Shown: piece after piece, positions 2,118 through 54,582 of the stretch | How the letters are laid out: each line of letters starts with the position of its first letter | Numbering within the stretch: the stretch's first letter is position 1 | Assembly (NCBI GenBank): GCA_964016885.1 | Contig: OZ024759.1 | Location: forward strand, 5,208,001 to 5,272,000 | Source of the DNA: Eledone cirrhosa | Lineage: Eukaryota | Direction of reading: 5' to 3' | Length of the DNA: 64,000 nucleotides | The notes under the pieces: generated by a model | Database searches by the model: none | What the model saw: the letters and a program-made list of their open reading frames with translations, nothing else | What the model was told of the DNA's origin: nothing | Made by a program: the position numbers and the translations under genes

Positions 2118-2255
2118 CTGTCTGACAGTTGCTACCTTCATAACCAGCAGCACATCCGCCACTAAAATACACACCTGTCTGTTTGTTACACCTGTTGTTG
2201 TCAGTACAGTGACAGATGCTTTCGCAGTTGGGTCCAAATTTACCAATATCACAAA
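2118..2255 (-). CDS. EGF-like exon (138 bp, phase 1-1) of MEGF10/11-SREC-like protein; one Cys>Tyr
   Basis: tttag|TT TGT GAT ATT GGT...CAG ACA G|gtaagt; CDIGKFGPNCESICHCTDNNRCNKQTGVYFSGGCAAGYEGSNCQT. Confidence 0.8.
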
Positions 2256-2322
2256 CTAAACATACAAAAAAAATAGATAAACAAATTCTGAAGAAGTCAC
2301 GGCTGTTCCACATTTCTAGTCA

Positions 2323-3260
2323 CTGTACTATTGTAACTAGTACTCTACTAACTACCACTATACTAACTATTGTAACTAGTACTCTACTAACTACTACTAC
2401 ATCATTCACTATACTAACTATTGTAACTAGTACTCTACTAACTACCACTATACTAACTATTGTAACTAGTACTCTATTAACTACCACTACATCATTCACT
2501 ATACTAACTATTGTAACTAGTACTCTACTAACTACCACTATACCATTCACTATACTAACTATTGTAACTAGTACTCTACTAACTACCACTACATCATTCA
2601 CTATACTAACTATTGTAACTAGTACTCTACTAACTACCACTATACCATTCACTATACTAACTATTGTAACTAGTACTCTACTAACTACCACTACATCATT
2701 CACTATACTAACTATTGTAACTAGTACTCTACTAACTACCACTATACCATTCACTATACTAACTATTGTAACTAGTACTCTACTAACTACCACTATACCA
2801 TTCACTATACTAACTATTGTAACTAGTACTCTACTAACTACCACTACATCATTCACTATACTAACTATTGTAACTAGTACTCTACTAACTACCACTACAT
2901 CATTCACTATACTAACTATTGTAACTAGTACTCTACTAATTACCACTATACCAATCACTATACTAACTATTGTAACTAGTACTCTACTAACTACCACTAC
3001 ATCATTCACTATACTAACTATTGTAACTAGTACTCTACTAACTACCACTATACCATTCACTATACTAACTACCACTACATCATTCACTATACTAACTATT
3101 GTAACTAGTACTCTACTAACTACTACTACATCATTCATTATACTAACTATTGTAACTAGTACTCTACTAACTACTACTAAATCATTCACTATACTAACTA
3201 TTGTAACTAGTACGCTACTAACTACCACTATACCATTCACTATACTATTATAACTACCAC
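2323..3260. repeat. 51-bp minisatellite (with 39-bp variants)
   Basis: Unit actatactaactattgtaactagtactctactaactaccactacatcattc; resumes at about 5805-5870 after a SINE. Confidence 0.9.
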
Positions 3261-3264
3261 TCTG

Positions 3265-5800
3265 TAGTAGTAGTAGTGGCACTCCATCGGTTACGATGAG
3301 TGTTCCAACTGATACAATCAACAGTACAGCCTGCTCGTGAAATTTACATGCAAGTGGCTGAGTATTCCACAAACACGCGTACCCATAATATAGTTCTCAG
3401 GGAGATTCAGCAAGACACAATATGTGACAAGGCTAGCATTTCGAATTACAGGTACAGTTCATTTTTGCCAGCTGAGTGGACTGGAGCAACATGAAATAAA
3501 GTGTCTTGCTCAAGGACACAGTGGACTGGAGCAACATGAAATAAAGTGTCTTGCTCAAGGACACAGTGGACTGGAGCAACATGAAATAAAGTGTCTTGCT
3601 CAAGGACACAGTGGACTGGAGCAACATGAAATAAAGTGTCTTGCTCAAGGACACAGTGGACTGGAGCAACATGAAATAAAGTGTCTTGCTCAAGGACACA
3701 GTGGACTGGAGCAACATGAAATAAGGTGTCTTGCTCAAGGACACAGTGGACTGGAGCAACATGAAATAAGGTGTCTTGCTCAAGGACACAGTGGACTGGA
3801 GCAACATGAAATAAAGTGTCTTGCTCAAGGACACAGTGGACTGGAGCAACATGAAATAAGGTGTCTTGCTCAAGGACACAGTGGACTGGAGCAACATGAA
3901 ATAAAGTGTCTTGCTCAAGGACACAGTGGACTGGAGCAACATGAAATAAAGTGTCTTGCTCAAGGACACAGTGGACTGGAGCAACATGAAATAAAGTGTC
4001 TTGCTCAAGAATACAGTGGACTGGAGCAACATGAAATAAAGTGTCTTGCTCAAGGACACAGTGGACTGGAGCAACATGAAATAAGGTGTCTTGTTCAAGG
4101 ACACAGTGGACTGGAGCAACATGAAATAAGGTGTCTTGCTCAAGGACACAGTGGACTGGAGCAACATGAAATAAAGTGTCTTGCTCAAGGACACAGTGGA
4201 CTGGAGCAACATGAAATAAGGTGTCTTGCTCAAGGACACAGTGGACTGGAGCAACATGAAATAAAGTGTCTTGCTCAAGGACACAGTGGACTGGAGCAAC
4301 ATGAAATAAAGTGTCTTGCTCAAGGACACAGTGGACTGGAGCAACATGAAATAAGGTGTCTTGCTCAAGGACACAGTGGACTGGAGCAACATGAAATAAA
4401 GTGTCTTGCTCAAGGACACAGTGGACTGGAGCAACATGAAATAAAGTGTCTTGCTCAAGGACACAGTGGACTGGAGCAACATGAAATAAGGTGTCTTGCT
4501 CAAGGACACAGTGGACTGGAGCAACATGAAATAAGGTGTCTTGCTCAAGGACACAGTGGACTGGAGCAACATGAAATAAAGTGTCTTGCTCAAGGACACA
4601 GTGGACTGGAGCAACATGAAATAAGGTGTCTTGCTCAAGGACACAGTGGACTGGAGCAACATGAAATAAAGTGTCTTGCTCAAGGACACAGTGGACTGGA
4701 GCAACATGAAATAAAGTGTCTTGCTCAAGGACACAGTGGACTGGAGCAACATGAAATAAGGTGTCTTGCTCAAGGACACAGTGGACTGGAGCAACATGAA
4801 ATAAAGTGTCTTGCTCAAGGACACAGTGGACTGGAGCAACATGAAATAAAGTGTCTTGCTCAAGGACACAGTGGACTGGAGCAACATGAAATAAAGTGTC
4901 TTGCTCAAGGACACAGTGGACTGGAGCAACATGAAATAAAGTGTCTTGCTCAAGGACACAGTGGACTGGAGCAACATGAAATAAAGTGTCTTGCTCAAGG
5001 ACACAGTGGACTGGAGCAACATGAAATAAAGTGTCTTGCTCAAGGACACAGTGGACTGGAGCAACATGAAATAAAGTGTCTTGCTCAAGGACACAGTGGA
5101 CTGGAGCAACATGAAATAAGGTGTCTTGCTCAAGGACACAGTGGACTGGAGCAACATGAAATAAAGTGTCTTGCTCAAGGACACAGTGGACTGGAGCAAC
5201 ATGAAATAAGGTGTCTTGCTCAAGGACACAGTGGACTGGAGCAACATGAAATAAAGTGTCTTGCTCAAGGACACAGTGGACTAGAGCAACATGAAATAAA
5301 GTGTCTTGCTCAAGGACACAGTGGACTGGAGCAACATGAAATAAAGTGTCTTGCTCAAGGACACAGTGGACTGGAGCAACATGAAATAAAGTGTCTTGCT
5401 CAAGGACACAGTGGACTGGAGCAACATGAAATAAAGTGTCTTGCTCAAGGACACAGTGGACTAGAGCAACATGAAATAAAGTGTCTTGCTCAAGGACACA
5501 GTGGACTGGAGCAACATGAAATAAAGTGTCTTGCTCAAGGACACAGTGGACTGGAGCAACATGAAATAAAGTGTCTTGCTCAAGGACACAGTGGACTGGA
5601 GCAACATGAAATAAAGTGTCTTGCTCAAGGACACAGTGGACTGGAGCAACATGAAATAAAGTGTCTTGCTCAAGGACACAGTGGACTGGAGCAACATGAA
5701 ATAAAGTGTCTTGCTCAAGGACACAATGTACTGCTGGGAATTGAACTCGTGACCTTACAATCTTAAGCCGAATACCCTAACTACGAAGCCACGTGCTTCA
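3265..5800 (-). mobile_element. tRNA-derived CORE-like SINE with internally amplified 45-bp unit
   Basis: Head near 5730-5800 (box B gagttcaattcc on minus strand), (agt)n tail at 3265, candidate TSD ccactct. Confidence 0.75.
3476..5725. repeat. 45-bp minisatellite, about 50 near-identical copies
   Basis: Unit gtggactggagcaacatgaaataaagtgtcttgctcaaggacaca. Confidence 0.95.
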
Positions 5801-6663: not shown

Positions 6664-6801
6664 CTTTCTGACAACTGTTTCCTTCATAACCTGGAGCACA
6701 TCTACCCCTTGAACAGATCCCTAATTCCACATTACACCTGTTGTTATCTTCACAATGACACACCTGATCACAGTTGGCACCAAGTCTTCCACTACTGCAC
6801 A
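6664..6801 (-). CDS. EGF-like exon (138 bp, phase 1-1)
   Basis: ttacag|TG TGC AGT...CAG AAA G|gttagt; CSSGRLGANCDQVCHCEDNNRCNVELGICSRGRCAPGYEGNSCQK, 8 Cys. Confidence 0.88.
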
Positions 6802-7555: not shown

Positions 7556-7675
7556 CTGTAGGGTAATGTCTTGTGATGGTAATGGTGGTACTGGTGGTAG
7601 TAGTGGGAATATTGCACCGGACAATTCTCGTTTCATTTTCTTCCAATTTTCTCTGTTGCTCCATGTTCATCACTC

Positions 7676-9300: not shown

Positions 9301-9347
9301 TGTCTCAATATATTATTTTAGAAACAAAGCTACACTACACCACTTAC

Positions 9348-9485
9348 CTGTCTGACAGTTGCTACCTTCATAACCAGCAGCACATCCGCCACTAGAACAC
9401 ACACCTGTCTGTTTGTTACACCTGCTGTTATCTGCACAGTGACATGTATATTTACAGTTGGGTCCAAATTTACCTGTTTTACACC
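9348..9485 (-). CDS. EGF-like exon (138 bp, phase 1-1)
   Basis: ttttcag|GG TGT AAA ACA...CAG ACA G|gtaagt; CKTGKFGPNCKYTCHCADNSRCNKQTGVCSSGGCAAGYEGSNCQT. Confidence 0.88.
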
Positions 9486-9859: not shown

Positions 9860-9872
9860 TTACACCACTTAC

Positions 9873-10009
9873 CTGTCTGACAGTTGCTACCTTCATAACC
9901 AGCAGCACATCCTCCACTGGAACACACACCTGTCTGTTTGTTACACCTGTTGTTGTCAGCACAGTGACAAATATTGCCATAGTTGGGCCAAATTTACCTG
10001 TTTTACACA
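9873..10009 (-). pseudogene. Frameshifted EGF exon copy (137 bp)
   Basis: AG/GT intact; 1-bp deletion after TTT GG and a Cys>Tyr (AAC TAT GGC). Confidence 0.75.
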
Positions 10010-10261: not shown

Positions 10262-10381
10262 CTGTCTGACAGTTGCTACCTTCATAACCAGCAGCACATC
10301 CTCCACTGGAACACACACCTGCTGTTGTCAGAACAGTGACATGTGTTGCCACAGTTGGGTCCAATTTACCTGTTTTACACC
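10262..10381 (-). pseudogene. Deleted EGF exon copy (120 bp), frame restored by two compensating deletions
   Basis: ttttcag|GG TGT...G|gtaagc; CKTGKLDPTVATHVTVLTTAGVCSSGGCAAGYEGSNCQT. Confidence 0.7.
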
Positions 10382-11102
10382 CTGAAAATAAAATATGGAA
10401 GTCTAAATATATTTGACAATTCACATTAATTTCTGATAGTCTCATATTTTAAATGGTGGACATTATCCTAATTCTGTAAAATTGAGATAAGAAAGATTGC
10501 TCCAATTAAAGAAGGAACTCCTTGTTAAACCTTCCTGATAAAGTTTATGATAAATGTCTGACAAAGAGAGATTGTTGTGTTCAAGTTAGCTGATGGACAA
10601 TGTGGTTTTACCCTGGATGCAGTAAAGCTGACCAAATATTCACAGTGAGGTAGGTCTTTGATAAATCATGGGATTACTGCCAAGAGATGTATTCCTGTTT
10701 TGCAGACATCAAAAAGGCTTATGACAGTATTTTACAGGATCAGATGTGGAATGTTCTGAATGACTATGGGGTCGATGGACACATCCCGGCTCCAATAAAT
10801 TAGTCATCCCCATTTTTCCTCAACACATGATCCAGCATATCCTTTCATTTCTCTTCATAAATATTATTGACACTATTTACATCAATCTCTGCAAAATATT
10901 GATTTCCTGCCTCTTTCATGGGGATATTTCACCGGACCATTCTCATTTCAAGTCTCCTCTGCTTTCTCTGTTGTTCCATCTTCATCAATCATGTCTCACT
11001 CTTAAAAATAATGTCACTTCTAACACATGTAGCATACATTTTTCCCTTCCATGTGATGTCTCAATATATTAAGTTAGAAACCAAGCTATACTACACCACT
11101 TA

Positions 11103-11965
11103 CCTGTCTGACAGTTTCTATCTTCATAACCAGCACCACACCTGTCTGACAGTTGCTACCTTCATAACCAGCACCACACCTGTCTGACAGTTGTTACCTT
11201 TATAACCAGCACCACACGTGTCTGACAGTTGCTACCTTCATAACCAGCACCACACCTGTCTGACAGTTGTTACCTTTATAACCAGCACCACACCTGTCTG
11301 ACAGTTGTTACCGTCATAACCAGCACCACACCTGTCTGACAGTTGTTACCTTCATAACCAGCACCACACCTGTCTGACAGTTGCTACCTTCATAACCAGC
11401 ACCACACCTGTCTGACAGTTGCTACCTTCATAACCAGCACCACACCTGTCTGACAGTTGTTACCTTTATAACCAGCACCACACCTGTCTGACAGTTGCTA
11501 CCTTCATAACCAACACCACACCTGTCTGACAGTTGTTACCTTCATAACCAGCACCACACCTGTCTGACAGTTGTTACCTTTATAACCAGCACCACACCTG
11601 TCTGACAGTTGCTACCTTCATAACCAGCACCACACCTGTCTGACAGTTGTTACCTTTATAACCAGCACCACACCTGTCTGACAGTTGTTACCTTCATAAC
11701 CAGCACCACACCTGTCTGGCAGTTGCTACCTTCATAACCAGCACCACACCTGTCTGACAGTTGCTATCTTCATAACCAGCACCACACCTGTCTGACAGCT
11801 GATACCTTTATAACAAGCACCACACCTCCACTACAACACACACCTGTCTGACAGCTGATACCTTTATAACTAGCACCACACCTCCACTACAACACACACC
11901 TGTCTGACAGTTGATACCTTTATAACAAGCATCACACCTCCATTACAACACCCACCTGTCTGACA
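11103..11965. repeat. 38-bp minisatellite (about 19 copies) grading into 57-bp units, derived from EGF exon 3' end
   Basis: Unit cctgtctgacagttgctaccttcataaccagcaccaca; retains exon donor cacttacc at its left edge. Confidence 0.9.
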
Positions 11966-11974
11966 CCTGTCTGT

Positions 11975-13534: not shown

Positions 13535-13672
13535 CTGTCTGACAGTTGCCACCTTCATATCCAGGAGCACATCCTCCATTAGAGCAGCTACCAGTCTGTG
13601 GCTTACATTTACTCTTGTCAGCACAATGACACATGTTTCGACAGTTTGGTCCAAATTTTCCTCTCTTACATC
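13535..13672 (-). CDS. EGF-like exon (138 bp, phase 1-1)
   Basis: ttgtag|GA TGT AAG AGA...CAG ACA G|gtaagt; CKRGKFGPNCRNMCHCADKSKCKPQTGSCSNGGCAPGYEGGNCQT. Confidence 0.9.
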
Positions 13673-15045: not shown

Positions 15046-18000
15046 ACACACGTGTCTGACAGGTGCTACCTTATAACCAGGACCACACCATCTACTGTAA
15101 CACACCTGTCTGATAGGTGATACCTTATAACCAGGACCACACCATCTACTGTAACACACCTGTCTGACAGGTGCTACCTTATAACCAGGACCACACCATC
15201 TACTGTAACACACCTGTCTGATAGATGATACCTTATAACCAGGACCACACCATCTACTGGAACACACCTGTCTGACAGGTGCTACCTTATAACCAGGACC
15301 ACACCATCTACTGTAACACACCTGTCTGATAGATGATACCTTATAACCAGGACCACACCATCTACTGTAACACACATGTCTGACAGGTGCTACCTTATAA
15401 CCAGGACCACATCATCTACTGTAACACACCTGTCTGATAGATGATACCTTATAAACAGGACCACACCATCTACTGTAACACACCTGTCTGACAGGTGCTA
15501 CCTTATAACCAGGATCACACCATCTACTGTAACACACCTGTCTGACAGGTGCTACCATATAACCAGTACCACACCATCTACTGGAACACACGTGTCTGAC
15601 AGGTGCTACCTTATAACCAGGACCACACCATCTACTGTAACACACCTGTCTGACAGCTGCTACCTTATAACCAGGACCACACCATCTACTGGAACACACC
15701 TGTCTGACAGGTGCTACCTTATAACCAGGACCACACCATCTACTGTAACACACCTGTCTGATAGATGATACCTTATAACCAGGACCACACCATCTACTGG
15801 AACACACCTGTCTGCCAGGTGCTACCTTATAACCAGGACCACACCATCTACTGTAACACACCTGTCTGATAGATGATACCTTATAACCAGGACCACACCA
15901 TCTACTGTAACACACATGTCTGATAGCTGCTACCATATAACCAGGACCACACCATCTACTGTAACACACCTGTCTGATAGATGATACCTTATAACCAGGA
16001 CCACACCATCTACTGTAACACACCTGTCTGACAGGTGCTACCTTATAACCAGGACCACACCATCTACTGTAACACACCTGTCTGATAGATGATACCTTAT
16101 AACCAGGACCACACCATCTACTGTAACACACCTGTCTGACAGGTGCTACCTTATAACCAGGACCACACCTTCTACTGTAACACACCTGTCTGACAGGTGC
16201 TACCTTATAACCAGGACCACACCATCTACTGTAACACACCTATCTGACAGGTGCTACCTTATAACCAGGACCACACCTTCTACTGTAACACACCTGTCTG
16301 ACAGGTGCTACCTTATAACCAGGACCACACCATCTTCTGTAACACACCTGTCTGACAGCTGCTACCATATAACCAGGACCACACCATCTACTGTAACACA
16401 CCTGTCTGATAGCTCCTACCTTATAACCAGGACCACACTATCTACTGTAACACACTTGTCTGACAGGTGCTACCTTATAACCAGGACCACACCATCTACT
16501 GTAACACACCTGTCTGATAGATGATACCTTATAACCAGGACCACACCATCTACTGGAACACACCTGTCTGACAGGTGCTACCTTATAACCAGGACCACAC
16601 CATCTACTGTAACACACCTGTCTGATAGATGATACCTTATAACCAGGACCACACCATCTACTGTAACACACATGTCTGACAGGTGCTACCTTATAACCAG
16701 GACCACATCATCTACTGTAACACACCTGTCTGATAGATGATACCTTATAAACAGGACCACACCATCTACTGTAACACACCTGTCTGACAGGTGCTACCTT
16801 ATAACCAGGATCACACCATCTACTGTAACACACCTGTCTGACAGCTGCTACCATATAACCAGTACCACACCATCTACTGGAACACACGTGTCTGACAGGT
16901 GCTACCTTATAACCAGGACCACACCATCTACTGTAACACACCTGTCTGACAGCTGCTACCTTATAACCAGGACCACACCATCTACTGGAACACACCTGTC
17001 TGACAGGTGCTACCTTATAACCAGGACCACACCATCTACTGTAACACACCTGTCTGATAGATGATACCTTATAACCAGGACCACGCCATCTACTGGAACA
17101 CACCTGTCTGACAGGTGCTACCTTATAACCAGGACCACACCATCTACTGTAACACACCTGTCTGATAGATGATACCTTATAACCAGGACCACACCATCTA
17201 CTGTAACACACATGTCTGATAGCTGCTACCATATAACCAGGACCACACCATCTACTGTAACACACCTGTCTGATAGATGATACCTTATAACCAGGACCAC
17301 ACCATCTACTGTAACACACCTGTCTGACAGGTGCTACCTTATAACCAGGACCACACCATCTACTGTAACACACCTGTCTGACAGGTGCTACCTTATAACC
17401 AGGACCACACCATCTACTGTAACACACATGTCTGATAGCTGCTACCTTATAACCAGGACCACACCATCTACTGTAACACACCTGTCTGACAGCTGCTACC
17501 ATATAACCAGGACCACACCATCTACTGTAACACACCTGTCTGATAGATGATACCTTATAACCAGGACCACACCATCTACTGTAACACACCTGTCTGACAG
17601 GTGCTACCTTATAACCAGGACCACACCTTCTACTGTAACACACCTGTCTGACAGGTGCTACCTTATAACCAGGACCACACCATCTACTGTAACACACCTA
17701 TCTGACAGGTGCTACCTTATAACCAGGACCACACCTTCTACTGTAACACACCTGTCTGACAGGTGCTACCTTATAACCAGGACCACACCATCTTCTGTAA
17801 CACACCTGTCTGACAGCTGCTACCATATAACCAGGACCACACCATCTACTGTAACACACCTGTCTGATAGCTCCTACCTTATAACCAGGACCACACTATC
17901 TACTGTAACACACTTGTCTGACAGGTGCTACCTTATAACCAGGACCACACCATCTACTGTAACACACCTGTCTGATAGATGATACCTTATAACCAGGACC

Positions 18001-21000
18001 ACACCATCTACTGGAACACACCTGTCTGACAGGTGCTACCTTATAACCAGGACCACACCATCTACTGTAACACACCTGTCTGATAGATGATACCTTATAA
18101 CCAGGACCACACCATCTACTGTAACACACATGTCTGACAGGTGCTACCTTATAACCAGGACCACATCATCTACTGTAACACACCTGTCTGATAGATGATA
18201 CCTTATAAACAGGACCACACCATCTACTGTAACACACCTGTCTGACAGCTGCTACCTTATAACCAGGACCACACCATCTACTGTAACACACCTATCTGAC
18301 AGGTGCTACCTTATAACCAGGACCACACCTTCTACTGTAACACACCTGTCTGACAGGTGCTACCTTATAACCAGGACCACACCATCTTCTGTAACACACC
18401 TGTCTGACAGCTGCTACCATATAACCAGGACCACACCATCTACTGTAACACACCTGTCTGATAGCTCCTACCTTATAACCAGTACCACACTATCTACTGT
18501 AACACACTTGTCTGACAGGTGCTACCTTATAACCAGGACCACACCATCTACTGTAACACACCTGTCTGATAGATGATACCTTATAACCAGGACCACACCA
18601 TCTACTGGAACACACCTGTCTGACAGGTGCTACCTTATAACCAGGACCACACCATCTACTGTAACACACCTGTCTGATAGATGATACCTTATAACCAGGA
18701 CCACACCATCTACTGTAACACACATGTCTGACAGATGCTACCTTATAACCAGGACCACATCATCTACTGTAACACACCTGTCTGATAGATGATACCTTAT
18801 AAACAGGACCACACCATCTACTGTAACACACCTGTCTGACAGGTGCTACCTTATAACCAGGATCACACCATCTACTGTAACACACCTGTCTGACAGCTGC
18901 TACCATATAACCAGTACCACACCATCTACTGGAACACACGTGTCTGACAGCTGCTACCTTATAACCAGGACCACACCATCTACTGTAACACACCTGTCTG
19001 ACAGCTGCTACCTTATAACCAGGACCACACCATCTACTGGAACACACCTGTCTGACAGGTGCTACCTTATAACCAGGACCACACCATCTACTGTAACACA
19101 CCTGTCTGATAGATGATACCTTATAACCAGGACCACACCATCTACTGGAACACACCTGTCTGACAGGTGCTACCTTATAACCAGGACCACACCATCTACT
19201 GTAACACACCTGTCTGATAGATGATACCTTATAACCAGGACCACACCATCTACTGTAACACACCTGTCTGATAGATGATACCTTATAAACAGGACCACAC
19301 CATCTACTGTAACACACCTGTCTGACAGGTGCTACCTTATAACCAGGATCACACCATCTACTGTAACACACCTGTCTGACAGCTGCTACCATATAACCAG
19401 TACCACACCATCTACTGGAACACACGTGTCTGACAGGTGCTACCTTATAACCAGGACCACACCATCTACTGTAACACACCTGTCTGACAGCTGCTAACTT
19501 ATAACCAGGACCACACCATCTACTGGAACACACCTGTCTGACAGATGCTACCTTATAACCAGGACCACACCATCTACTGTAACACACCTGTCTGATAGAT
19601 GATACCTTATAACCAGGACCACACCATCTACTGGAACACACCTGTCTGACAGGTACTACCTTATAACCAGGACCACACCATCTACTGTAACACACCTGTC
19701 TGATAGATGATACCTTATAACCAGGACCACACCATCTACTGTAACACACATGTCTGATAGCTGCTACCATATAACCAGGACCACACCATCTACTGTAACA
19801 CACCTGTCTGATAGATGATACCTTATAACCAGGACCACACCATCTACTGTAACACACCTGTCTGACAGGTGCTACCTTATAACCAGGACCACACCATCTA
19901 CTGTAACACACCTGTCTGACAGGTGCTACCTTATAACCAGGACCACACCTTCTACTGTAACACACCTGTTTGACAGGTGCTACCTTATAACCAGGACCAC
20001 ACCATCTACTGTAACACACCTGTCTGACAGGTGCTACCTTATAACCAGGACCACACCTTCTACTGTAACACACCTGTCTGACAGGTGCTACCTTATAACC
20101 AGGACCACACCATCTACTGTAACACACCTGTCTGACAGGTGCTACCTTATAACCAGGACCACACCATCTACTGTAACACACATGTCTGATAGCTGCTACC
20201 TTATAACCAGGACCACACCATCTACTGTAACACACCTGTCTGACAGCTGCTACCATATAACCAGGACCACACCATCTACTGTAACACACCTGTCTGATAG
20301 ATGATACCTTATAACCAGGACCACACCATCTACTGTAACACACCTGTCTGACAGGTGCTACCTTATAACCAGGACCACACCTTCTACTGTAACACACCTG
20401 TCTGACAGGTGCTACCTTATAACCAGGACCACACCATCTACTGTAACACACCTATCTGACAGGTGCTACCTTATAACCAGGACCACACCTTCTACTGTAA
20501 CACACCTGTCTGACAGGTGCTACCTTATAACCAGGACCACACCATCTACTGTAACACACCTGTCTGACAGCTGCTACCATATAACCAGGACCACACCATC
20601 TACTGTAACACACCTGTCTGACAGCTGCTACCTTATAACCAGGACCACACCATCTACTGTAACACACCTGTCTGACAGCTCCTACCTTATAACCAGGACC
20701 ACACTATCTACTGTAACACACTTGTCTGATAGCTGCTACCTTATAACCAGGACCACACCATCTACTGTAACACACCTGTCTGACAGGTGATACCTTATAA
20801 CCAGGACCACGCCATCTACTGTAACACACCTGTCTGACAGCTGCTACCTTATAACCAGGACCACACCATCTACTGTAACACACCTGTCTGACAGCTGCTA
20901 CCTTATAACCAGGACCACACCATCTACTGTAACACACCTGTCTGACAGGTGCTACCTTATAACCAGGACCACACCATCTACTGTAACACACCTGTCTGAC

Positions 21001-24000
21001 AGGTGCTAACTTATAACCAGGACCACACCATCTACTGTAACACACTTATCTGACAGGTGCTACCTATTAACCAGGACCACACCATCTACTGTAACACACC
21101 TGTCTGACAGGTGCTACCTTATAACCAGGACCACACCATCTACTGTAACACACCTGTCTGATAGATGATACCTTATAACCAGGACCACACCATCTACTGT
21201 AACACACCTGTCTGACAGGTGCTACCTTATAACCAGGACCACACCATCTACTGTAACACACCTGTCTGACAGCTGCTACCTTATAACGAGGACCACACCA
21301 TCTACTGTAACACACCTCTCTGACAGGTGCTACCATATAACCAGGACCACACCATCTACTGTAACACACCTGTCTGATAGATGATACCTTATAACCAGGA
21401 CCACACCATCTACTGTAACACACCTGTCTGACAGGTGCTACCTTATAACCAGGACCACACCATCTACTGTAACACACCTGTCTGATAGATGATACCTTAT
21501 AACCAGGACCACACCATCTACTGTAACACACCTGTCTGATAGATGATACCTTATAACCAGGACCACACCATCTACTGTAACACACCTGTCTGATAGATGA
21601 TACCCTATAACCAGGACCACACCATCTACTGTAACACACCTGTCTGACAGGTGCTACCTTATAACCAGGACCACACCATCTACTGTAACACACCTGTCTG
21701 ATAGATGATACCTTATAACCAGGACCACACCATCTACTGGAACACACCTGTCTCACAGGTGCTACCTTATAACCAGGACCACACCATCTACTGTAACACA
21801 CCTGTCTGACAGGTGCTACCTTATAACCAGGACCACACCATCTACTGTAACACACCTGTCTGACAGGTGCTACCTTATAACCAGGATCACACCATCTACT
21901 GTAACACACCTGTCTGACAGGTGCTACCTTATAACCAGGACCACACCATCTACTGTAACACACCTGTCTGATAGATGATACCTTATAACCAGGACCACAC
22001 CATCTACTGTAACACACCTGTCTGACAGGTGCTACCTTATAACCAGGACCACACCATCTACTGTAACACACCTGTCTGACAGGTGCTACCTTATAACCAG
22101 GACCACACCTTCTACTGTAACACACCTGTCTGACAGGTGCTACCTTATAACCAGGACCACACCATCTACTGTAACACACCTGTCTGACAGGTGCTACCTT
22201 ATAACCAGGACCACACCATCTACTGTAACACACATGTCTGATAGATGATACCTTATAACCAGGACCACACCATCTACTGTAACACACCTGTCTGACAGCT
22301 GCTACCATACAACCAGGACCACACCATCTACTGTAACACACCTGTCTGATAGATGATACCTTATAACCAGGACCACACCATCTACTGTAACACACCTGTC
22401 TGACAGGTGCTACCTTATAACCAGGACCACACCATCTACTGTAACACACCTATCTGACAGGTGCTACCTTATAACCAGGACCACACCTTCTACTGTAACA
22501 CACCTGTCTGACAGGTGCTACCTTATAACCAGGACCACACCATCTACTGTAACACACCTGTCTGACAGCTGCTACCATATAACCAGGACCACACCATCTA
22601 CTGTAACACACCTGTCTGACAGCTGCTACCTTATAACCAGGACCACACCATCTACTGTAACACACCTGTCTGACAGCTCCTACCTTATAACCAGGACCAC
22701 ACTATCTACTGTAACACACTTGTCTGATAGCTGCTACCTTATAACCAGGACCACACCTTCTACTGTAACACACCTGTTTGACAGGTCCTACCTTATAACC
22801 AGGACCACACCATCTACTGTAACACACCTGTCTGACAGGTGCTACCTTATAACCAGGACCACACCATCTACTGTAACACACCTGTCTGACAGGTGATACC
22901 TTATAACCAGGACCACACCATCTACTGTAACACACCTGTCTGACAGCTGCTACCTTATAACCAGGACCACACCATCTACTGTAACACACCTGTCTGACAG
23001 CTGCTACCTTATAACCAGGACCACACCATCTACTGTAACACACCTGTCTGACAGGTGCTACCTTATAACCAGGACCACACCATCTACTGTAACACACCTG
23101 TCTGACAGGTGCTAACTTATAACCAGGACCACACCATCTACTGTAACACACTTATCTGACAGGTGCTACCTATTAACCAGGACCACACCATCTACTGTAA
23201 CACACCTGTCTGACAGGTGCTACCTTATAACCAGGACCACACCATCTACTGTAACACACCTGTCTGATAGATGATACCTTATAACCAGGACCACACCATC
23301 TACTGTAACACACCTGTCTGACAGGTGCTACCTTATAACCAGGACCACACCATCTACTGTAACACACCTGTCTGACAGCTGCTACCTTATAACGAGGACC
23401 ACACCATCTACTGTAACACACCTCTCTGACAGGTGCTACCATATAACCAGGACCACACCATCTACTGTAACACACCTGTCTGATAGATGATAACTTATAA
23501 CCAGGACCACACCATCTACTGTAACACACCTGTCTGATAGATGATACCTTATAACCAGGACCACACCATCTACTGTAACACACCTGTCTGACAGGTGCTA
23601 CCTTATAACCAGGACCACACCATCTACTGTAACACACCTGTCTGATAGATGATACCTTATAACCAGGACCACACCATCTACTGTAACACACCTGTCTGAT
23701 AGATGATACCTTATAACCAGGACCACACCATCTACTGTAACACACCTGTCTGATAGATGATACCCTATAACCAGGACCACACCATCTACTGTAACACACC
23801 TGTCTGACAGGTGCTACCTTATAACCAGGACCACACCATCTACTGTAACACACCTGTCTGATAGATGATACCTTATAACCAGGACCACACCATCTACTGG
23901 AACACACCTGTCTCACAGGTGCTACCTTATAACCAGGACCACACCATCTACTGTAACACACCTGTCTGACAGGTGCTACCTTATAACCAGGACCACACCA

Positions 24001-24290
24001 TCTACTGTAACACACCTGTCTGACAGGTGCTACCTTATAACCAGGATCACACCATCTACTGTAACACACCTGTCTGACAGGTGCTACCTTATAACCAGGA
24101 CCACACCATCTACTGTAACACACCTGTCTGATAGATGATACCTTATAACCAGGACCACACCATCTACTGTAACACACCTGTCTGACAGCTGCTACCTTAT
24201 AACCAGGACCACACCATCTACTGTAACACACCTGTCTGATAGATGATACCTTATAACCAGGAACACACCTTCCACTGGAACACACACCTG
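15046..24290. repeat. 54-bp minisatellite, about 170 copies with higher-order structure, derived from EGF exon 3' half
   Basis: Unit cacacctgtctgacaggtgctaccttataaccaggaccacaccatctactgtaa aligns to exon segment cctgtctgacagttgctaccttcataaccagcagcacatcctccactagaacacaca. Confidence 0.95.
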
Positions 24291-24367: not shown

Positions 24368-24505
24368 CTGTCTGACAGTTGCTACTTTCATAACCAGCAG
24401 TACATCCTCCTCTAGAACACACACCTGTCTGTTTGTTACATTTACTGTTGTCAGCACAGTAACATGTGTTGCCACAGTTGGCTCCAAATTTTCCATTTCT
24501 ACAGA
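24368..24505 (-). CDS. EGF-like exon (138 bp, phase 1-1)
   Basis: ttccacag|TC TGT AGA AAT...G|gtaagc; CRNGKFGANCGNTCYCADNSKCNKQTGVCSRGGCTAGYESSNCQT. Confidence 0.87.
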
Positions 24506-25920: not shown

Positions 25921-26058
25921 CTGTCTGACAGTTGCTACCTTCATAACCAGCAGTACATCCTCCACTAGAACACACACCTGTCTGTTTGTAACACCTGTTA
26001 TTATCAGCACAGTGGCATGTGTGTTTACAGTTAGCTCCAAATTTACCAATGTCACAGG
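25921..26058 (-). CDS. EGF-like exon (138 bp, phase 1-1)
   Basis: ttacag|CC TGT GAC ATT...G|gtaagt; CDIGKFGANCKHTCHCADNNRCYKQTGVCSSGGCTAGYEGSNCQT. Confidence 0.88.
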
Positions 26059-27737: not shown

Positions 27738-27875
27738 CTGTCTGACAGTTGCTACCTTCATAACCAGCAGCACATCCTCCACTAGAACACACACCTGTCT
27801 GTTTGTTACATTTACTGTTGTCAGCACAGTGACATGTGTTGCCACAGTTGGCTCCAAATTTACCTGATTTACAGA
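27738..27875 (-). CDS. EGF-like exon (138 bp, phase 1-1)
   Basis: tttccag|TC TGT AAA TCA...G|gtatat; CKSGKFGANCGNTCHCADNSKCNKQTGVCSSGGCAAGYEGSNCQT. Confidence 0.85.
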
Positions 27876-29846: not shown

Positions 29847-30211
29847 ATCTATACTATAGTGATATCAACTATTTTATATCTATATCATCTGTACTATATC
29901 CCTACAACCTATATTATATCTATAGCTATACTATATCTATTCCTCTATATTATATCTATTGAAGGTGCAAGGATTAGTGGTAAGAGCGTCAGGCTTACAA
30001 TCATAAAGTTGTGAGTTTGATGCCTGAATCTTGCTGTGTTTTGTGTTCTTGAACAAGTCACTTTATTTCATGTTGCTCAAGATACTCTGCTATAGAAATG
30101 AGTTGTGATGTCACACTTTCAATAGGAACACACACCTGTCTCTAAGTTACACCTGCTGTTGTTTTGTTTCAATATATTATGCTACAACAAAGTTATGCTA
30201 CATCACTTACC

Positions 30212-33200
30212 TTATTAGAAATATGGTAATGAAAGGGTTAATGACATAGACAGTGTCTTTCATTAGAAATATGGTAATGAAAGGGTTAATGACATAGACA
30301 GTGTCTTTCATTAGATATATGGTAATGAAGGGGTTAATGACATAGACAGTGTCTTTCATTAGATATATGGTAATGCAGGGGTTAATAACATAGGTAGTGT
30401 CTTTCATTAGATATATGGTAATGAAAGGGTTAATGACATAGACAGTGTCTTTTATTAGATATATGGTAATGAAGGGGTTAATGACATAGACAGTGTCTTT
30501 CATTAGATATATGGTTATGAAAGGGTTAATGACATAGGTAGTGTCTTTCATTAGAAATATGGTAATGAAAGGGTTAATGACATAGACAGTGTCTTTCATT
30601 AGATATATGGTAATGAAGGGGTTAATGACATAGACGGTGTCTTTCATTAGATATATGGTAATGCAGGGGTTAATAACATAGGTAGTGTCTTTCATTAGAT
30701 ATATGGTAATGAAAGGGTTAATGACATAGACAGTGTCTTTTATTAGATATATGGTAATGAAGGGGTTAATGACATAGACAGTGTCTTTCATTAGATATAT
30801 GGTAATGAAAGGGTTAATGACATAGACAGTGTCTTTCATTAGATATATGGTAATGAAGGGGTTAATGACATAGACAGTGTCTTTCATTAGATATATGGTA
30901 ATGCAGGGGTTAATAACATAGGTAGTGTCTTTCATTAGAAATATGGTAATGAAAGGGTTAATGACATAGACAGTGTCTTTCATTAGAAATATGATAATGA
31001 AAGGGTTAATGACATATAGTGTCTTTCATTAGAAATATGGTAATGAAAGGGTTAATGACATAGACAGTGTCTTTCATTAGATATATGGTAATGCAGGGGT
31101 TAATAACATAGGTAGTGTCTTTCATTAGATATATGGTAATGAAAGGGTTAATGACATAGACAGTGTCTTTTATTAGAAATATGATAATGAAAGGGTTAAT
31201 GACATATAGTGTCTTTCATTAGAAATATGGTAATGAAAGGGTTAATGACATAGACAGTGTCTTTCATTAGATATATGGTAATGAAGGGGTTAATGACATA
31301 GACAGTGTCTTTCATTAGATATATGGTAATGAAAGGGTTAATGACATAGACAGTGTCTTTCATTAGATATATGGTAATGAAGGGGTTAATGACATAGACA
31401 GTGTCTTTCATTAGATATATGGTAATGCAGGGGTTAATAACATAGGTAGTGTCTTTCATTAGAAATATGGTAATGAAAGGGTTAATGACATAGGCAGTGT
31501 CTTTCATTAGAAATATGATAATGAAAGGGTTAATGACATATAGTGTCTTTCATTAGAAATATGGTAATGAAAGGGTTAATGACATAGACAGTGTCTTTCA
31601 TTAGATATATGGTAATGCAGGGGTTAATAACATAGGTAGTGTCTTTCATTAGATATATGGTAATGAAAGGGTTAATGACATAGACAGTGTCTTTTATTAG
31701 AAATATGGTAATGAAAGGGTTAATGATATAGACAGTGTCTTTCACTAGATATATGGTAATGAAGGGGTTAATGACATAGACAGTGTCTTTCATTAGAAAT
31801 ATGGTAATGAAAGGGTTAATGACATAGGTAGTGTCTTTAATTAGAAATATAGTAATGAAAGGGTTAATGACATAGACAGTGTCTTTTATTAGAAATATGA
31901 TAATGAAAGGGTTAATGATATAGACAGTGTCTTTCACTAGATATATGGTAATGAAGGGGTTAATGACATAGACAGTGTCTTTCATTAGAAATATGGTAAT
32001 GAAAGGGTTAATGACATAGGTAGTGTCTTTAATTAGAAATATAGTAATGAAAGGGTTAATGACATAGACAGTGTCTTTCATTAGAAATATGGTAAGGAAA
32101 GGGTTAATGACATAGACAGTGTCTTTCATTAGAAATATGGTAATGAAAGGGTTAATGACATAGGTAATGTCTTTAATTAGAAATATAGTAATGAAAGGGT
32201 TAATGACATAGACAGTGTCTTTCATTAGAAATATGGTAATGAAAGGGTTAATGACATAGACAGTGTCTTTCATTAGAAATATGGTAATGAAAGGGTTAAT
32301 GACATAGACAGTGTCTTTCATTAGAAATATGGTAATGAAAGGGTTAATGACATAGACAGTGTCTTTCATTAGAAATATGGTAATGAAAGTGTTAATGACA
32401 TATACAGTGTCTTTCATTAGAAATATGGTAATGAAAGGGTTAATGACATAGACAGTGTCTTTCATTAGAAATATGGTAATGAAAGGGTTAATGACATAGA
32501 CAGTGTCTTTCATTAGAAATATGGTAATGAAAGGGTTAATGACATAGGTAATGTCTTTAATTAGAAATATAGTAATGAAAGGGTTAATGACATAGACAGT
32601 GTCTTTCATTAGAAATATGGTAAGGAAAGAGTTAATGACAGACAGTGTCTTTCATTAGATATATGGTAATGAAAGGGTTAATGACATAGACAGTGTCTTT
32701 CATTAGAAATATGGTAATGAAAGGGTTAATGACATAGACAGTGTCTTTCATTAGAAATATGGTAATGAAAGGGTTAATGACATATACAGTGTCTTTCATT
32801 AGAAATATGGTAATGAAAGGGTTAATGACATAGACAGTGTCTTTCATTAGAAATATGGTAATGAAAGGGTTAATGACATAGACTGTGTCTTTCTTTAGAA
32901 ATATGGTAATGAAAGGGTTAATGACATATACAGTGTCTTTCATTAGAAATATGGTAATGAAAGGGTTAATGACATAGACAGTGTCTTTCATTAGAAATAT
33001 GGTAATGAAAGGGTTAATGACATATACAGTGTCTTTCACTAGAAATATGATAATTGTTTCTACTTTTGGCACAAGGCCTGCAATTACCCAGTCTATTACT
33101 GGTACTTTATTTTATCGACCCCATAAGGATGAAAGGCAAAGTTAACCTCGGCGGGATTTGAACTCAGAATGGCAAGGGCCGTAACTCTATGCGTCAAAGC

Positions 33201-33410: not shown

Positions 33411-33671
33411 CTATACTGACAGTTGCTACCTTCATAACCAGCAGCACATCCTCCACTAGAACATACACCTGTCTCTATGTTACACCTGATGTTGTTTTGT
33501 TTCAATATATTAAGCTACAGACTAAGCTATACTACACAACACACTTCATTGGAACACACACCTGTCTCTGTGTTACATCTCGCTGTTTGTTACACGTCTC
33601 TGTATGTTACACCTGCTGTTGTCTTGACCCACTATATTAAGTTATAAACAAAGCTATACTACACCACTTAC

Positions 33672-33809
33672 CTGTCTGACAGTTGCTACCTTCATAACCA
33701 GCAGTACATCCTCCACTAGAACACACACCTGTCTGTTTGTTACATTTACTGTTGTCAACACAGTGACATGTGTTGCCACAGTTGGCTCCAAATATACCAT
33801 TTCTACAGA
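33672..33809 (-). CDS. EGF-like exon (138 bp, phase 1-1)
   Basis: ttccacag|TC TGT AGA AAT GGT ATA...G|gtaagt; CRNGIFGANCGNTCHCVDNSKCNKQTGVCSSGGCTAGYEGSNCQT. Confidence 0.88.
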
Positions 33810-34499: not shown

Positions 34500-34693
34500 T
34501 TCTTCATAACCAGCACCACACCCTCTACTGTAACACACCTGTCTTACAGTTGCTATCTTCATAACCATCACCACACACTTCACTGGAACACACACCTGTC
34601 TCTGTGTTACATCTAGCTGTTTGTTACACCTGCTGTTGTTAGTACAGTGACATGTGTGTTTACAGTTAGGTCCAAATTTACCTGCTTTACACC
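34500..34693 (-). pseudogene. Rearranged EGF exon copy
   Basis: Acceptor and CKAGKFGPNCKHTCHCTNNSRCNKQ intact, then a short frameshifting duplication and a degenerate 3' half. Confidence 0.7.
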
Positions 34694-34856: not shown

Positions 34857-34993
34857 CTGTCTGACAGTTGCTACCTTCATAACCAGCAGCACATCCTCCA
34901 CTAGAACACACACCTGTCTCTTTGTTACACCTGCTGTTATCAGCACAGTGACATGTGTATTTACAGTTGGGTCCAAATTTACCTGTTTACAGA
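34857..34993 (-). pseudogene. EGF exon copy with 1-bp deletion (137 bp); may be a homopolymer sequencing error
   Basis: TGT AAA CAG GT versus TGT AAA ACA GGT in paralogs; rest intact with AG/GT. Confidence 0.65.
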
Positions 34994-35669: not shown

Positions 35670-35807
35670 CTGTTTGACAGTTGCTACCTTCATAACCAGC
35701 AGCACATCCTCCACCTGAACACACACCTGTCTCTTTGTTACACCTGCTGTTATCTGCGCAGTGACATGTGTATTTACAGTTGGCTCCAAATTTACCTGTT
35801 TTACAGA
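35670..35807 (-). CDS. EGF-like exon (138 bp, phase 1-1)
   Basis: ttttcag|TC TGT AAA ACA...CAA ACA G|gtaagt; CKTGKFGANCKYTCHCADNSRCNKETGVCSGGGCAAGYEGSNCQT. Confidence 0.88.
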
Positions 35808-36587: not shown

Positions 36588-36651
<64 letters not shown>

Positions 36652-38781: not shown

Positions 38782-38919
38782 CTGTCTGACAGTTGCTACC
38801 TTCATAACCAGCAGTACACCCTCCACTGTAACACACACCTGTCTCTGTGTTACATTTGCTGTTGTCTGCACAGTGACAATTTCTACTACAGCTGGGACCA
38901 AACTTTCCTACAGGACACA
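38782..38919 (-). CDS. EGF-like exon (138 bp, phase 1-1)
   Basis: ttctatag|TG TGT CCT GTA...G|gtaagt; CPVGKFGPSCSRNCHCADNSKCNTETGVCYSGGCTAGYEGSNCQT. Confidence 0.9.
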
Positions 38920-41911: not shown

Positions 41912-42045
41912 CATGGTGACAGTCAGGTCCCTGGTAACTGGGTTGACAACCTCCACTGGAACACACACCTGTGATGAAGTTGTGGTGACATCAGCACAGT
42001 GGCAGGTTTCTTTACAGTTGAGGCCGTAGTTACCTTGACGACACT
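41912..42045 (-). pseudogene. Divergent EGF exon with 4-bp deletion (134 bp)
   Basis: CRQGNYGLNCKETCHCADVT, frameshift removing one Cys, then NFITGVCSSGGCQPSYQGPDCHH G|gtatgt. Confidence 0.7.
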
Positions 42046-46490: not shown

Positions 46491-46523
46491 CCCTCTCTAA
46501 AGGGTAAACAGATAAAAACTTAC

Positions 46524-46661
46524 TTGACTGGCAGCTGTGTCCCCTGTGACCAGGTGAGCACCTTCCATGGATGCAGATACCATTGTCAGAGTAACATTTG
46601 CCATTATTCAGACAGTGGCACTCCTTCACACAGTTGACACCAAACATGCCATGGGCACATC
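46524..46661 (-). CDS. EGF-like exon (138 bp, phase 1-1)
   Basis: ttttctcag|GA TGT GCC CAT...TCA A|gtaagt; CAHGMFGVNCVKECHCLNNGKCYSDNGICIHGRCSPGHRGHSCQS. Confidence 0.9.
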
Positions 46662-48873: not shown

Positions 48874-49008
48874 CTTTACAAGTGTTATTCACATCAATAT
48901 ATCCATCTTTACATCCAGTCACACATTTGCCAGTCAATTGATCACATGTCTTTCTGCAGTTGTTGCACTCTTCTTTACAATTTCTTCCATAGAATCCAGG
49001 GAGACATT
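48874..49008 (-). CDS. EGF-like exon (135 bp, phase 1-1), first EGF after the lectin-like domain
   Basis: tctttctag|AA TGT CTC CCT...AAA G|gtgagt; CLPGFYGRNCKEECNNCRKTCDQLTGKCVTGCKDGYIDVNNTCK. Confidence 0.9.
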
Positions 49009-52400: not shown

Positions 52401-52724
52401 TTTCATGGTAAAGGCTTTACCTCACATAATTATCTCACATAACATTTACCTTACTCTGTATTTACTATTGCATTTTCATGGTAAAGGCTTTACCTCACAT
52501 AATTATCTCACATAACATTTACATTACTCTGTATTTACTATTGTATTTTCATGGTAAAGGCTTTACCTCACATAATTATCTCACATAATATTGAATCTAC
52601 AAGATTTTAATATTATTTATTTTGAGAAGAAAACCTTAACATCAGTATGAGTGGCCAGTTGCAGCTGATTTGAACAGAGGTTAGAGAATTCTGGCCGGAT
52701 ATGGCCAGTTTAAATGCTAAAGGG
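49464..52724 (+). mobile_element. piggyBac-like MITE with internal 60-73-bp unit amplified over 40 times
   Basis: TTAA|ccctttagcattta...taaatgctaaaggg|TTAA; same family as 7138-7358. Confidence 0.9.
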
Positions 52725-53182
52725 TTAAACTGTTTACATTCCATTATAATTTCATGTAAGAACCTTTGTTAAGTTATATTCCAAACCACCTGAACTGCCC
52801 CAGGTTCTATGCTACAAAATTGTTTATTCCAAAGCCTTTATATTATCTAAAAATCTTCCATCTAATTTCATGTAAGAACCTTTGTTAAGTTACATTCCAA
52901 ACCACCTGAAACTGCCCTTATTCCACTTTAAGTTTACGGTTCATTTCTTTTTCATTTAGAATTGTCTCCTGCAAGAACATAGATGAAAATGGATGAAAAT
53001 GCACAAAAATTCAAACTGGTTATAATCAACAAGTAAAATCTTATTCATTTTTTTTTTTTTGGCATGGCATTGGAAAAGCATCACACTGTCTAAAAACGTC
53101 TGTCTTAAACCAGAAGGCTTGTTAGGCCAATGCTTATCTCGGTTTCATGGCATGAAGCAACTTGAAGTACAAGACACCTTGC

Positions 53183-53350
53183 TGTGAAGGCACATGTCTT
53201 AGTGGTTAGAGCATTGGGTTTGCAATCGAAAGGTTGTGAGTTCAATTCTCGGACCAGGTGATGTGTTGTTTCCTTGAGCAAGACACTTTATTTCACATTG
53301 CTCCAGTTTACTCAGCTGTAGAAATGAAATGATAGGACTGGGGTCCGTAT
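53183..53350 (+). mobile_element. SINE family C 5' half
   Basis: Matches 35088-35250. Confidence 0.7.
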
Positions 53351-54393
53351 CATTAAATTACCCTAGACACCTCCAACGAGATATACCTTGGAGGAGGCCA
53401 GCTAAACCTGCATATGTGTGAGCTGTAACAACAACAACCTCGCTGGACAGGACACCAGTCCATCACAGTGTTAAACCTCCAGCTATTACTGGTACTCATT
53501 TTCAGCTATATAATACAATATATTTTTCGTTAGGCTGGTGCTTATCTCTGGGAGTACAAGTATCGACTGGGAGTACAAGATTCCCCCTGGACAGGACACC
53601 AGTCCATCACAGGGTTAAACCTCCAGCTATTACTGGTACTCATTTTCAGCTGAGTATACTGGAGCAATGTGAAGTGAAGTGTTTTGCTCAAGAACACAAC
53701 ATGTAACCCAGCTCAGGAATCGAACCCATGACATTATGATTCTAAGTCCAACACCCTTACCACTAGGCAATGCACCAAACTGTGCAACTCCTAAATATTT
53801 TTGTATCTCCTCGTGTTTGTGTTTTTGTAGTTTTTATGTCAAATGAATTCAGAGCATAATCGACATGAGATGATTTCAACTAAAACCTGTTTCCCTATAA
53901 ATATGAAACACCCTAATATATATGTATATATGTTAAAGGTATATTATAAAGAGAAAGGACCTGCTGGCTGAGCTCTTGCTCTTTATAAAATAGCCATGCT
54001 CTACTACCGCGGGCTTTGTGTTGTGTTCTTGAGCAAGACACTTTATTTCACGTTGTTCCAGATCACTCAGCTGTGGAAATGGGTTGCGATGTCACTGGTG
54101 CCAAGCTGTATCGGCCATTGCCTTTCCCTTGGACAATATCAGTGGCATAGAGAGGGGAGGCTGTTATGCATGGGCTACTGCTGGTCTTCTACAAAACAAC
54201 CTTGCCCAGACTTGTGCCTTGGAGGGGAACTTTCTAGACTCAAATTCTATGGTCATTCGTGACCGAAGGATCTCTTTACCTTTTACCCTTACTAACCCAT
54301 GTATCGAATACTCTGTTCAGTAATGGTCTAACTAGTTTTAAACTGGTTCTATCCTGATTTATGTTAAAGGTATAAAGGTATCTATATACTTAT

Positions 54394-54582
54394 GAAAGAC
54401 CTCCACTTCACACATGCTAAGGCTAGGTCCTGACAGCAGAATTATTGTGATTTTGTTGCCCTTAACAGGACTAGAACATTGCACATCAATAACTTTTGTC
54501 TTCTCTAGATTGGAAATCTTCTCACATATTCTGTGTTTTTTGTCTTTTGATACCAACACTATTATTGAGAATTTATTTTGTG
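54394..54582 (-). CDS. Exon (189 bp) encoding the C-terminal half of a galactose-binding/F-type-lectin-like domain
   Basis: tttttctgcag|CA CAA AAT; ...DVQCSSPVKGNKITIILLSGPSLSMCEVEVF matches the C...G..V.I...L.LCEVEVF signature; expected donor reads ATAAGT. Confidence 0.75.

Follow-up and report, generated by a model that had tools for sequence, protein, structure and literature searches.

The 64,000-nt stretch of Eledone cirrhosa DNA that we analyzed (the window) carries exon L, which encodes the final third of a domain of the galactose-binding (F5/8- or fucolectin-like) type, and 17 EGF-type exons, 12 intact and five damaged (Table 1). All of these parts lie on the minus strand, and the gene runs beyond both ends of the window. 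The intact exons have AG/GT borders and are of phase 1-1. The 12 full-length and at least five damaged copies of the original prediction were confirmed; the length of 138 bp given to all of them applies to 11 of the intact exons, E1 being 135 bp long. Eight cysteines are kept in 11 of the 12 intact exons, with seven in E17, and the exon border falls within this eight-cysteine module. A blind scan for the pattern AG-Cys...GT returned 13 matches at the 12 intact loci (one is a second call within E1) and none on the plus strand; in 50 shuffles, the same scan gave a mean of 0.06 and a maximum of 1. Joined together, exon L and the intact exons encode 613 amino acids with no stop codon.

Table 1. 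Features of the lectin-EGF locus, in order of transcription (positions in the window)
Feature	Positions	Strand	Length (bp)	Description
Exon L	54394..54582	-	189	C-terminal third of galactose-binding (F5/8- or fucolectin-like) domain; phase 1-1
Exon L 5′ splice site	54388..54393	-		Variable: ATAAGT (dead) in window, GTAAGT in other reads
E1	48874..49008	-	135	Intact; counterpart of first EGF after lectin domain in XP_036365016.1
E2	46524..46661	-	138	Intact, divergent
E3	41912..42045	-	134	Damaged; lacks 4 bp; splice sites weak; stop in E4 if included
E4	38782..38919	-	138	Intact
E5	35670..35807	-	138	Intact
E6	34857..34993	-	137	1-bp deletion in A run; splice sites strong; private substitutions absent
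E7	34539..34693	-	155	17-bp insertion; donor weak; nonsynonymous private changes, 7
E8	33672..33809	-	138	Intact
Remnant	33416..33495	-		3′ half of EGF exon, without donor
Remnant	30110..30215	-		Donor and downstream intron of lost exon, adjoining 48-bp array
E9	27738..27875	-	138	Intact; donor CAG/GTATAT
E10	25921..26058	-	138	Intact; 3′-half remnant next to it (25769-25852)
E11	24368..24505	-	138	Intact
54-bp minisatellite	15046..24285	-		171 copies, 9.2 kb, from exon 3′ half
E12	13535..13672	-	138	Intact
38- and 56-bp minisatellites	11095..11969	-		From exon 3′ end, terminating in orphan consensus donor
E13	10262..10381	-	120	1-bp and 17-bp deletions, net in frame; 4/8 Cys
E14	9873..10009	-	137	Lacks 1 bp and one Cys; splice sites strong
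E15	9348..9485	-	138	Intact
E16	6664..6801	-	138	Intact, divergent; carries stop met on inclusion of E6, E7 or E14
E17	2118..2255	-	138	In frame; one Cys lost
17- and 57-bp repeats	1844..2060	-		From exon 3′ half

The best match to a profile of the EGF exons was Octopus sinensis XP_036365016.1 (P0001; E 3e-120, 61%), which is built as F5/8 - EGF - TM - PTP; the search also retrieved other mollusc relatives. Exon L and E1 match the lectin end and first EGF of this protein in the same order and phase. Exon L aligns to residues 358-391 (E 6e-4), and the best match of E1 is residues 393-429 (54% identity, E 1e-9), a pairing supported at 89/85 in trees. Although exon L covers just the C-terminal 62 residues of the lectin domain, 16 of 20 representative phmmer matches carry F5_F8_type_C(_2) (PF22633/PF00754). 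One match has no family, and we discounted two bacterial adhesins and one FeoB as products of chance or of repeat inflation. Against the eel lectin 1k12, exon L gave E 1.4; the fragment had no match when searched directly against Pfam, and word searches with its sequence found nothing among 39 and 1 candidates. Atlas neighbors, which provide a lead only, included clusters without a name at 0.94-0.95, as well as F5/8 clusters at 0.90. The exon L matches and the 12 intact EGF exons bear out the predicted lectin-like head on an EGF stalk. In proteins of the MEGF10/ced-1/Draper type, an N-terminal EMI domain directly precedes the EGF repeats; we rejected this assignment, as the exon before E1 is lectin-like.

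By homology, the product is predicted to be a single-pass glycan-sensing receptor, perhaps carrying a tyrosine phosphatase in its cytoplasmic part. Its TM and PTP parts would lie outside the window; within the window, tblastn with four relatives gave EGF matches only and no TM, PTP, or signal peptide. We discarded a potential terminal exon at 52968, as it sits in repeated sequence and lacks homology, and an Rfam scan of the window returned no families. The fucose motif of F-type lectins is HX24RXDX4(R/K) (PMC5712786). A relaxed pattern ending in R was found in none of five relatives; in the locus, the motif would be expected in upstream exons outside the window.

In the window, the in-phase donor of exon L is dead, with GT changed to AT at 54393. 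No consensus in-phase substitute was found near the end of the exon, and read-through meets a stop after 11 further residues. We compared the exon L region with sequenced contigs and reads from samples X1-X3 and X5. The contigs of X1, X2, and X3, which represent one sample, have the GT form only. In X5, a second sample, six of 13 reads have the intact donor and seven lack the intact donor base. The species thus has intact and dead forms of the exon L donor, either as alleles or as near-identical copies, and the locus varies between states in which head and stalk are linked and unlinked. In the sample of X1-X3, unique sequence of the locus has a word depth of ~780-1000, versus 4-13 for the listed long contigs of other loci; the locus may be amplified, but depth does not equal copy number. 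A search of sequencing runs listed no RNA dataset containing the locus, a result that says nothing about expression. Both this donor and the fact that the receptor family had already been described were missed in the original prediction.

The damaged exons differ in their predicted effects. Frameshifted copies with intact splice sites had been reported, a description that fits only E6 and E14; E3 (GAG acceptor, donor three mismatches from consensus) and E7 (sole donor CAG/GTGTGT) have weak sites, and E13 contains no stop codon. When all combinations of damaged exons were tested in silico, the frame stayed open only for E13 alone, so that, as predicted, a functional frame requires skipping, here of E3, E6, E7, and E14. 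In working transcripts, L would be spliced to E1 and on to the other intact exons without these four; transcripts that include any of them would hit premature stops in E4 or E16 and be degraded or anchorless. The consensus sites of E6 and E14 should splice well, an observation that runs against skipping.

Might inclusion of E6, E7, or E14, or the dead exon L donor, instead be a regulated switch that purposely yields a secreted, anchorless decoy lectin? The shifted frame does remain open through several exons, to approximately residues 593-599 in E16, and read-through of exon L adds 11 residues before its stop. However, the E16 stop lies more than 50 nt ahead of the E16-E17 junction, a classic trigger of decay. 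Exons rich in Cys and Gly, with little Leu, Ile, Val, or Met, would also be expected to have an open shifted frame. The snail LG5R family has TM-less members, which its authors, in the available part of their account, describe as possibly fragmentary (PMC13712769). Altogether, we regard such a switch as very improbable.

Other copies survive as pieces. EGF exon remnants seeded the 54- and 38-bp minisatellites. An ordinary gene in which assembly errors produced the frameshifts and the dead donor is a further alternative. Two of the three single-base deletions fall in homopolymer runs, the sample behind X1-X3 has only the intact exon L donor, and the read comparison covered the lectin exon only (for the E13/E14 region, 9340-10400, X1, X2, and X3 contain 0.82, 0.72, and 0.65 of its words). 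Nevertheless, the lesions in E3, E7, and E13 span 4-17 bp, the repeat arrays are mostly in register, and seven of the 13 X5 reads lack the intact donor base. Off-register spacings numbered 0/49 in the 45-bp, 0/154 in the 54-bp, and 1/26 in the 60-bp array; those in the 48-bp (4/49), 51-bp (6/59), and 31-bp (1/36) arrays were mostly recurring variants. We therefore consider assembly error extremely unlikely.

The exon sequences indicate purifying selection and mosaic recombination among the intact copies. The dN/dS comparison suggested with the original prediction gave values of 0.14-0.74 in 50 of 55 exon pairs, while the youngest triplet, E8, E9, and E11, had mutual values of 1.15-2.34. Private changes were 18 synonymous to 27 nonsynonymous in intact exons and 0 to 9 in damaged ones (Fisher p=0.022), although the synonymous excess was not significant with E12 left out (p=0.11). 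Positions 1-2 of cysteine codons were variable in 1 of 16 columns, compared to 30 of 74 other columns (p=0.009). Neighboring sites were more compatible than in permutations (p=0.0002), as expected of recombination among exon copies. Exon DNA trees had little resolution, with 11 of 14 branches open, and the damaged copies did not group together. Young exons are 72-96% alike, and the nine young intact copies form one side of a 92/93 branch that separates them from 15 units of XP_036365016.1, which indicates that the locus is a paralog rather than an ortholog. Tandem duplication and recombination of short units, each an exon with some 60-250 bp of flanking sequence, gave a young mosaic array, in which some copies died by indels and others degenerated into minisatellites. 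The predicted birth-and-death evolution of exons is evident in these young duplicates, indel-damaged copies, and remnants.

A stronger challenge is that the entire locus could be a paralog that has recently begun to die, with no skipping of damaged exons and with a purifying signal left from before its death. The five damaged exons, the cysteine loss in E17, and the dead exon L donor, seemingly present in X5 as well, would fit, as would dN/dS at or above 1 in the youngest triplet. The damage is recent, since E6 has no private substitution besides its deletion. On the other side, exon L and all 12 intact exons are free of stops, intact and damaged exons have different patterns of private change, and both of the samples compared contain an intact donor. 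We judge this explanation unlikely. The E17 cysteine loss and the dN/dS values above 1 nevertheless sit uneasily with a live gene.

The original prediction also raised combinatorial recognition, which we found unsupported. In arthropod Dscam, one exon is chosen per cluster and codes for a specificity surface. Splicing of this kind, giving many ligand specificities, could draw on the symmetric exons, on the isoform variety among relatives, and on changes in E8, E9, and E11 that may be relaxed or diversifying. But the copies are homogenized, there is a single lectin head, relatives include many exons jointly, all 12 intact exons here join in frame, and an exon border inside the eight-cysteine module fits a stalk. 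Such a role is very unlikely; the young EGF copies most likely form a stalk. Variable stalk length, as predicted, is typical of the family: among oyster and clam relatives (predicted RefSeq models), isoforms differ by deletion of whole EGF units in 14 of 16 comparisons.

On balance, the locus is probably the middle part of a mollusc gene of the galactose-binding/fucolectin-like and MEGF receptor family, live and variable, with a stalk growing by unequal crossover and dead exons that are skipped or trigger decay. The assembled copy would then be a loss-of-function haplotype, like the EGF-loss haplotypes of the Biomphalaria SudRes1 receptors (PMC12297450, as far as that account is available). 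The family itself is already known: mollusc lectin-MEGF(-TM-PTP) receptors are tied to schistosome resistance in snails and are a leading candidate for parasite recognition there, with no proof of ligand or function in the available parts of the accounts (PMC12297450, PMC13712769). What is new is the exon L donor, dead in the assembly and intact elsewhere, together with purifying selection and mosaic recombination in the intact exons. Our literature search found no paper on cephalopod members of the family and none on pseudo-exons in it, although supplements of PMC12297450 and PMC13712769 may describe exon-level loss. It would be a long shot to propose a cephalopod immune receptor under balancing selection, in which haplotypes differ in head-stalk splicing, transcripts differ in stalk length and anchoring, and frameshifted exons switch the product to a soluble decoy. 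Ways in which such receptors vary are visible at this locus: exon-sized duplication, conversion, copy death, and a two-state splice-site variant. As a single-base marker, the donor variant at 54393 could be genotyped and compared with infection outcome. Arrays of this sort also disrupt the annotation of genes; our searches yielded no annotated ortholog, which is weak evidence.

Among the closest known systems is XP_036365016.1, a 'MEGF6-like' protein-tyrosine phosphatase that shares the lectin end, special first EGF, and tandem eight-cysteine units (61% identity to E5). Its units alternate long and short, and N-glycan sequons occur in 13 of 15, versus 1 of 12 units in the window. Relatives from Magallana/Crassostrea gigas and Mya arenaria (e.g., XP_065926581 and isoforms, LOC128229310) have predicted isoforms that differ by whole 46- or 44-aa EGF units (138/132-bp cassettes); unlike in the window, their units are older and divergent, often with two lectin domains. 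EGF repeats of Drosophila Nimrod/Eater are homogenized within one gene, in an architecture unrelated to the locus. The same holds for tenascin (PMC2267704, available portion). Brown algal ROCO LRR exon arrays (PMC11378527, available part) and arthropod Dscam likewise combine same-phase repeat exons, alternative splicing, and candidate immune receptors, in part as here, but there the repeats are a binding surface under diversifying selection, or mutually exclusive, whereas here they are homogenized, most likely a stalk, and apparently under purifying selection. The MEGF/GBD receptor-like PTPs of Biomphalaria (SudRes1; LG5R 'scavenger class F-like' subgroups 1B and 1C) have a galactose-binding domain followed by multiple EGF repeats (PMC12297450, PMC13712769), and the locus has both the F5/8-like domain part and tandem eight-cysteine MEGF/SCARF-type repeats after it. 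Duplication, haplotypes that have lost functional EGF domains, and a proposed role for glycan recognition in immunity are described for these snail receptors; compared with the available parts of those accounts, the gene described here is from a cephalopod, has expanded inside one gene, and carries frameshifted pseudo-exons, exon-derived minisatellites, and a variable lectin donor.

The exon array in the window is real: it expanded recently, is decaying, and comes with a splice donor that varies. Its gene is encoded on the minus strand, surrounded by SINE-like repeats and long minisatellites, and has 17 EGF-type exons (E1-E17, numbered in minus-strand order). Twelve are intact and phase 1-1, with lengths of 135 bp (E1) or 138 bp (the other eleven), and 11 of the 12 retain eight cysteines. 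A blind exon scan returned 13 matches at these same 12 loci, one being a second call inside E1; there were none on the plus strand of the window and 0.06 per shuffle in 50 shuffled sequences. Scan and exon inspection bear out the twelve full-length and at least five damaged exons of the original prediction. Its statement that frameshifted copies keep intact splice sites holds for E6 and E14 only, and fails for E3 and E7, because of their sites, and for E13, because of its frame.

Features of the window, in window positions
Feature	Position	Description
Lectin exon (L)	54394-54582	minus strand, 189 bp
EGF-type exons	49008 to 2118	minus strand
E3 (damaged)		-4 bp, weak splice sites
E6 (damaged)		-1 bp
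E7 (damaged)		+17 bp, weak donor
E13 (damaged)		-1 and -17 bp, net in frame, 4 Cys
E14 (damaged)		-1 bp, one Cys gone
Further remnants	33416-33495; 30110-30215; 25769-25852; 11095-11969; 1844-2060	
Exon-derived 54-bp array	15046-24285	
Intronic minisatellites	3475-5733; 7675-9298; 26334-27722; 28013-29195; 30214-33054; 43009-46491; 49472-52592	units of 45, 60, 48, 31, 51, 73 bp
Direct duplication	about 36645-37222 and 37952-38527	E4-E5 intron, 578 bp, 95% identity
Degenerate LINE fragment	40700-41900	minus strand, between E3 and E4; RT match PF00078, E 2e-6
Non-LTR retrotransposon copies	55650-61240; 61610-64000	minus strand, tandem; endonuclease PF03372, RT-like frames

The 13 young copies (E4-E15 and E17) are 72-96% alike, with some 60-250 bp of flanking sequence in common. 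The nine intact young copies separate from all 15 EGF units of the Octopus sinensis relative XP_036365016.1 (92/93 support, few columns). Compatibility of nearby sites was above that in permutations (0.56 versus 0.71, p = 0.0002), a pattern expected from conversion or unequal crossover. Among 11 intact exons, dN/dS was 0.14-0.74 in 50 of 55 pairs and 1.15-2.34 in the three pairs among E8, E9 and E11; two pairs were saturated. Intact copies had 18 synonymous and 27 nonsynonymous private changes, damaged copies 0 and 9 (p = 0.022); the synonymous excess in the intact set had p = 0.004, or p = 0.11 when E12 was left out. Cysteine codons were conserved (variable columns, 1/16 versus 30/74 elsewhere; p = 0.009).

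As an internal control for indel errors, we measured unit spacing in six tandem arrays of the window. Off-register spacings numbered 0/49 (45 bp), 0/154 (54 bp), 1/26 (60 bp), 4/49 (48 bp), 6/59 (51 bp) and 1/36 (31 bp), those of the 48- and 51-bp arrays being mostly of recurring lengths. The three cleanest arrays carry one indel in about 13 kb, compared with three single-base deletions in 2.3 kb of exon sequence, and three exons have lesions of 4-17 bp. Assembly error is thus a most unlikely source of the lesions, although a possible one for E6. Since E6 has no private substitution, its lesion is recent.

We examined how the damaged exons would affect the product. Exon L joined in silico to the 12 intact exons encodes 613 amino acids with no stop. 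Adding E3 brings a stop in E4, and adding E6, E7 or E14 shifts the frame, which stays open until E16; E13 is the sole damaged exon tolerated in frame. A full-length receptor would therefore require skipping of the frame-breaking exons. In Pfam registers, each exon spans a module boundary, finishing one eight-cysteine module and beginning the following one, so skipping would yield a chimeric but complete module. A CAG/GTAAAT motif lies 11-12 nt into E5, E6, E7, E9, E13, E14 and E15 and could serve as a cryptic donor or acceptor; acceptor use in E6 would leave 126 nt in frame.

Exon L, in phase with E1, is expected to end at 54394, where the following bases are ATAAGT, and we found no consensus in-phase alternative donor near its end. 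We compared 52650-55150 with four sequencing runs, three of one sample (X1-X3) and one of another (X5, RAD reads). X1-X3 each gave one contig over exon L with 1-2 differences, all with the GT form of the donor, 61-62 letters from the contig end. In X5, 6 of 13 reads (5 starts) have GT; the other 7 are assumed to match the window. Nonsynonymous site 54545 also varies, between X2 and both X1 and X3 and in 13 of 31 X5 reads. Dead and intact donors thus both occur within the species, as alleles or near-identical copies, and the assembled copy is probably null. X1-X3 contigs of unique sequence in this interval had word depths of about 780-1000, versus 4-13 in long contigs of other loci listed, but word depth is not copy number and a run found through a gene is selected for covering it; the excess may reflect amplification, the collapse of a multi-copy locus or library bias.

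That the locus is a dying paralog fits the probable null copy but is unlikely, as the two donor states argue against a fixed pseudogene. We favor a live, variable receptor that would skip its dead exons, and consider this reading probable. Combinatorial recognition, which the original prediction had also raised, appears very doubtful, and a decoy switch slightly more so.

Other repeats populate the locus. The 9.2-kb 54-bp array and a 38-bp array both align to the 3′ half of an EGF exon, and the former has long minus-strand open frames, up to 563 codons of a cysteine-rich 18-amino-acid repeat. Several intronic minisatellite units match bits of dispersed repeats, or of intron flank, at other places in the window; thus, the locus repeatedly converts local sequence to tandem arrays. 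The tandem retrotransposon, presumably Tx1-like, has copies 97% identical over 2378 bp, and the complete one has broken frames. The two copies share one end sequence, next to a 72-bp minisatellite, a pattern that suggests either co-duplication or site-specific insertion.

The gene adds a new member to a mollusc receptor family that is already known. A profile built from 11 intact exons matched 24 of 302 candidate proteins, with XP_036365016.1, a "MEGF6-like" protein-tyrosine phosphatase, at the top (E 3e-120, 61%). In this protein an F5/8-type galactose-binding domain is followed by 15 EGF-type units, and there are also a hydrophobic segment and a PTP domain; lower-ranked matches were oyster, clam and gastropod proteins of like build and amphioxus EGF proteins. 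The top match and the repeat types make an octopus the probable source of the gene. Exon L had no Pfam match, and 16 of its 20 phmmer matches carry F5/8-type domains; it aligns with the end of the octopus lectin domain, and E1 best matches the EGF unit immediately after that domain. The predicted signal peptide, TM and PTP parts of the gene would lie outside the window. F-type lectins have a fucose motif, according to an excerpt of PMC5712786.

In oyster and clam relatives, the isoforms predicted by RefSeq show EGF cassette use to be a family trait: whole 46- or 44-amino-acid units, or multiples, are deleted in 14 of 16 comparisons of these models, and the other two are small replacements. By its sequence, the gene belongs to the family whose Biomphalaria members are called MEGF/GBD receptor-like PTPs in excerpts of PMC12297450 and scavenger class F-like subgroups 1B and 1C in excerpts of PMC13712769. 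There, the former excerpts state, functional EGF domains are lost between haplotypes.
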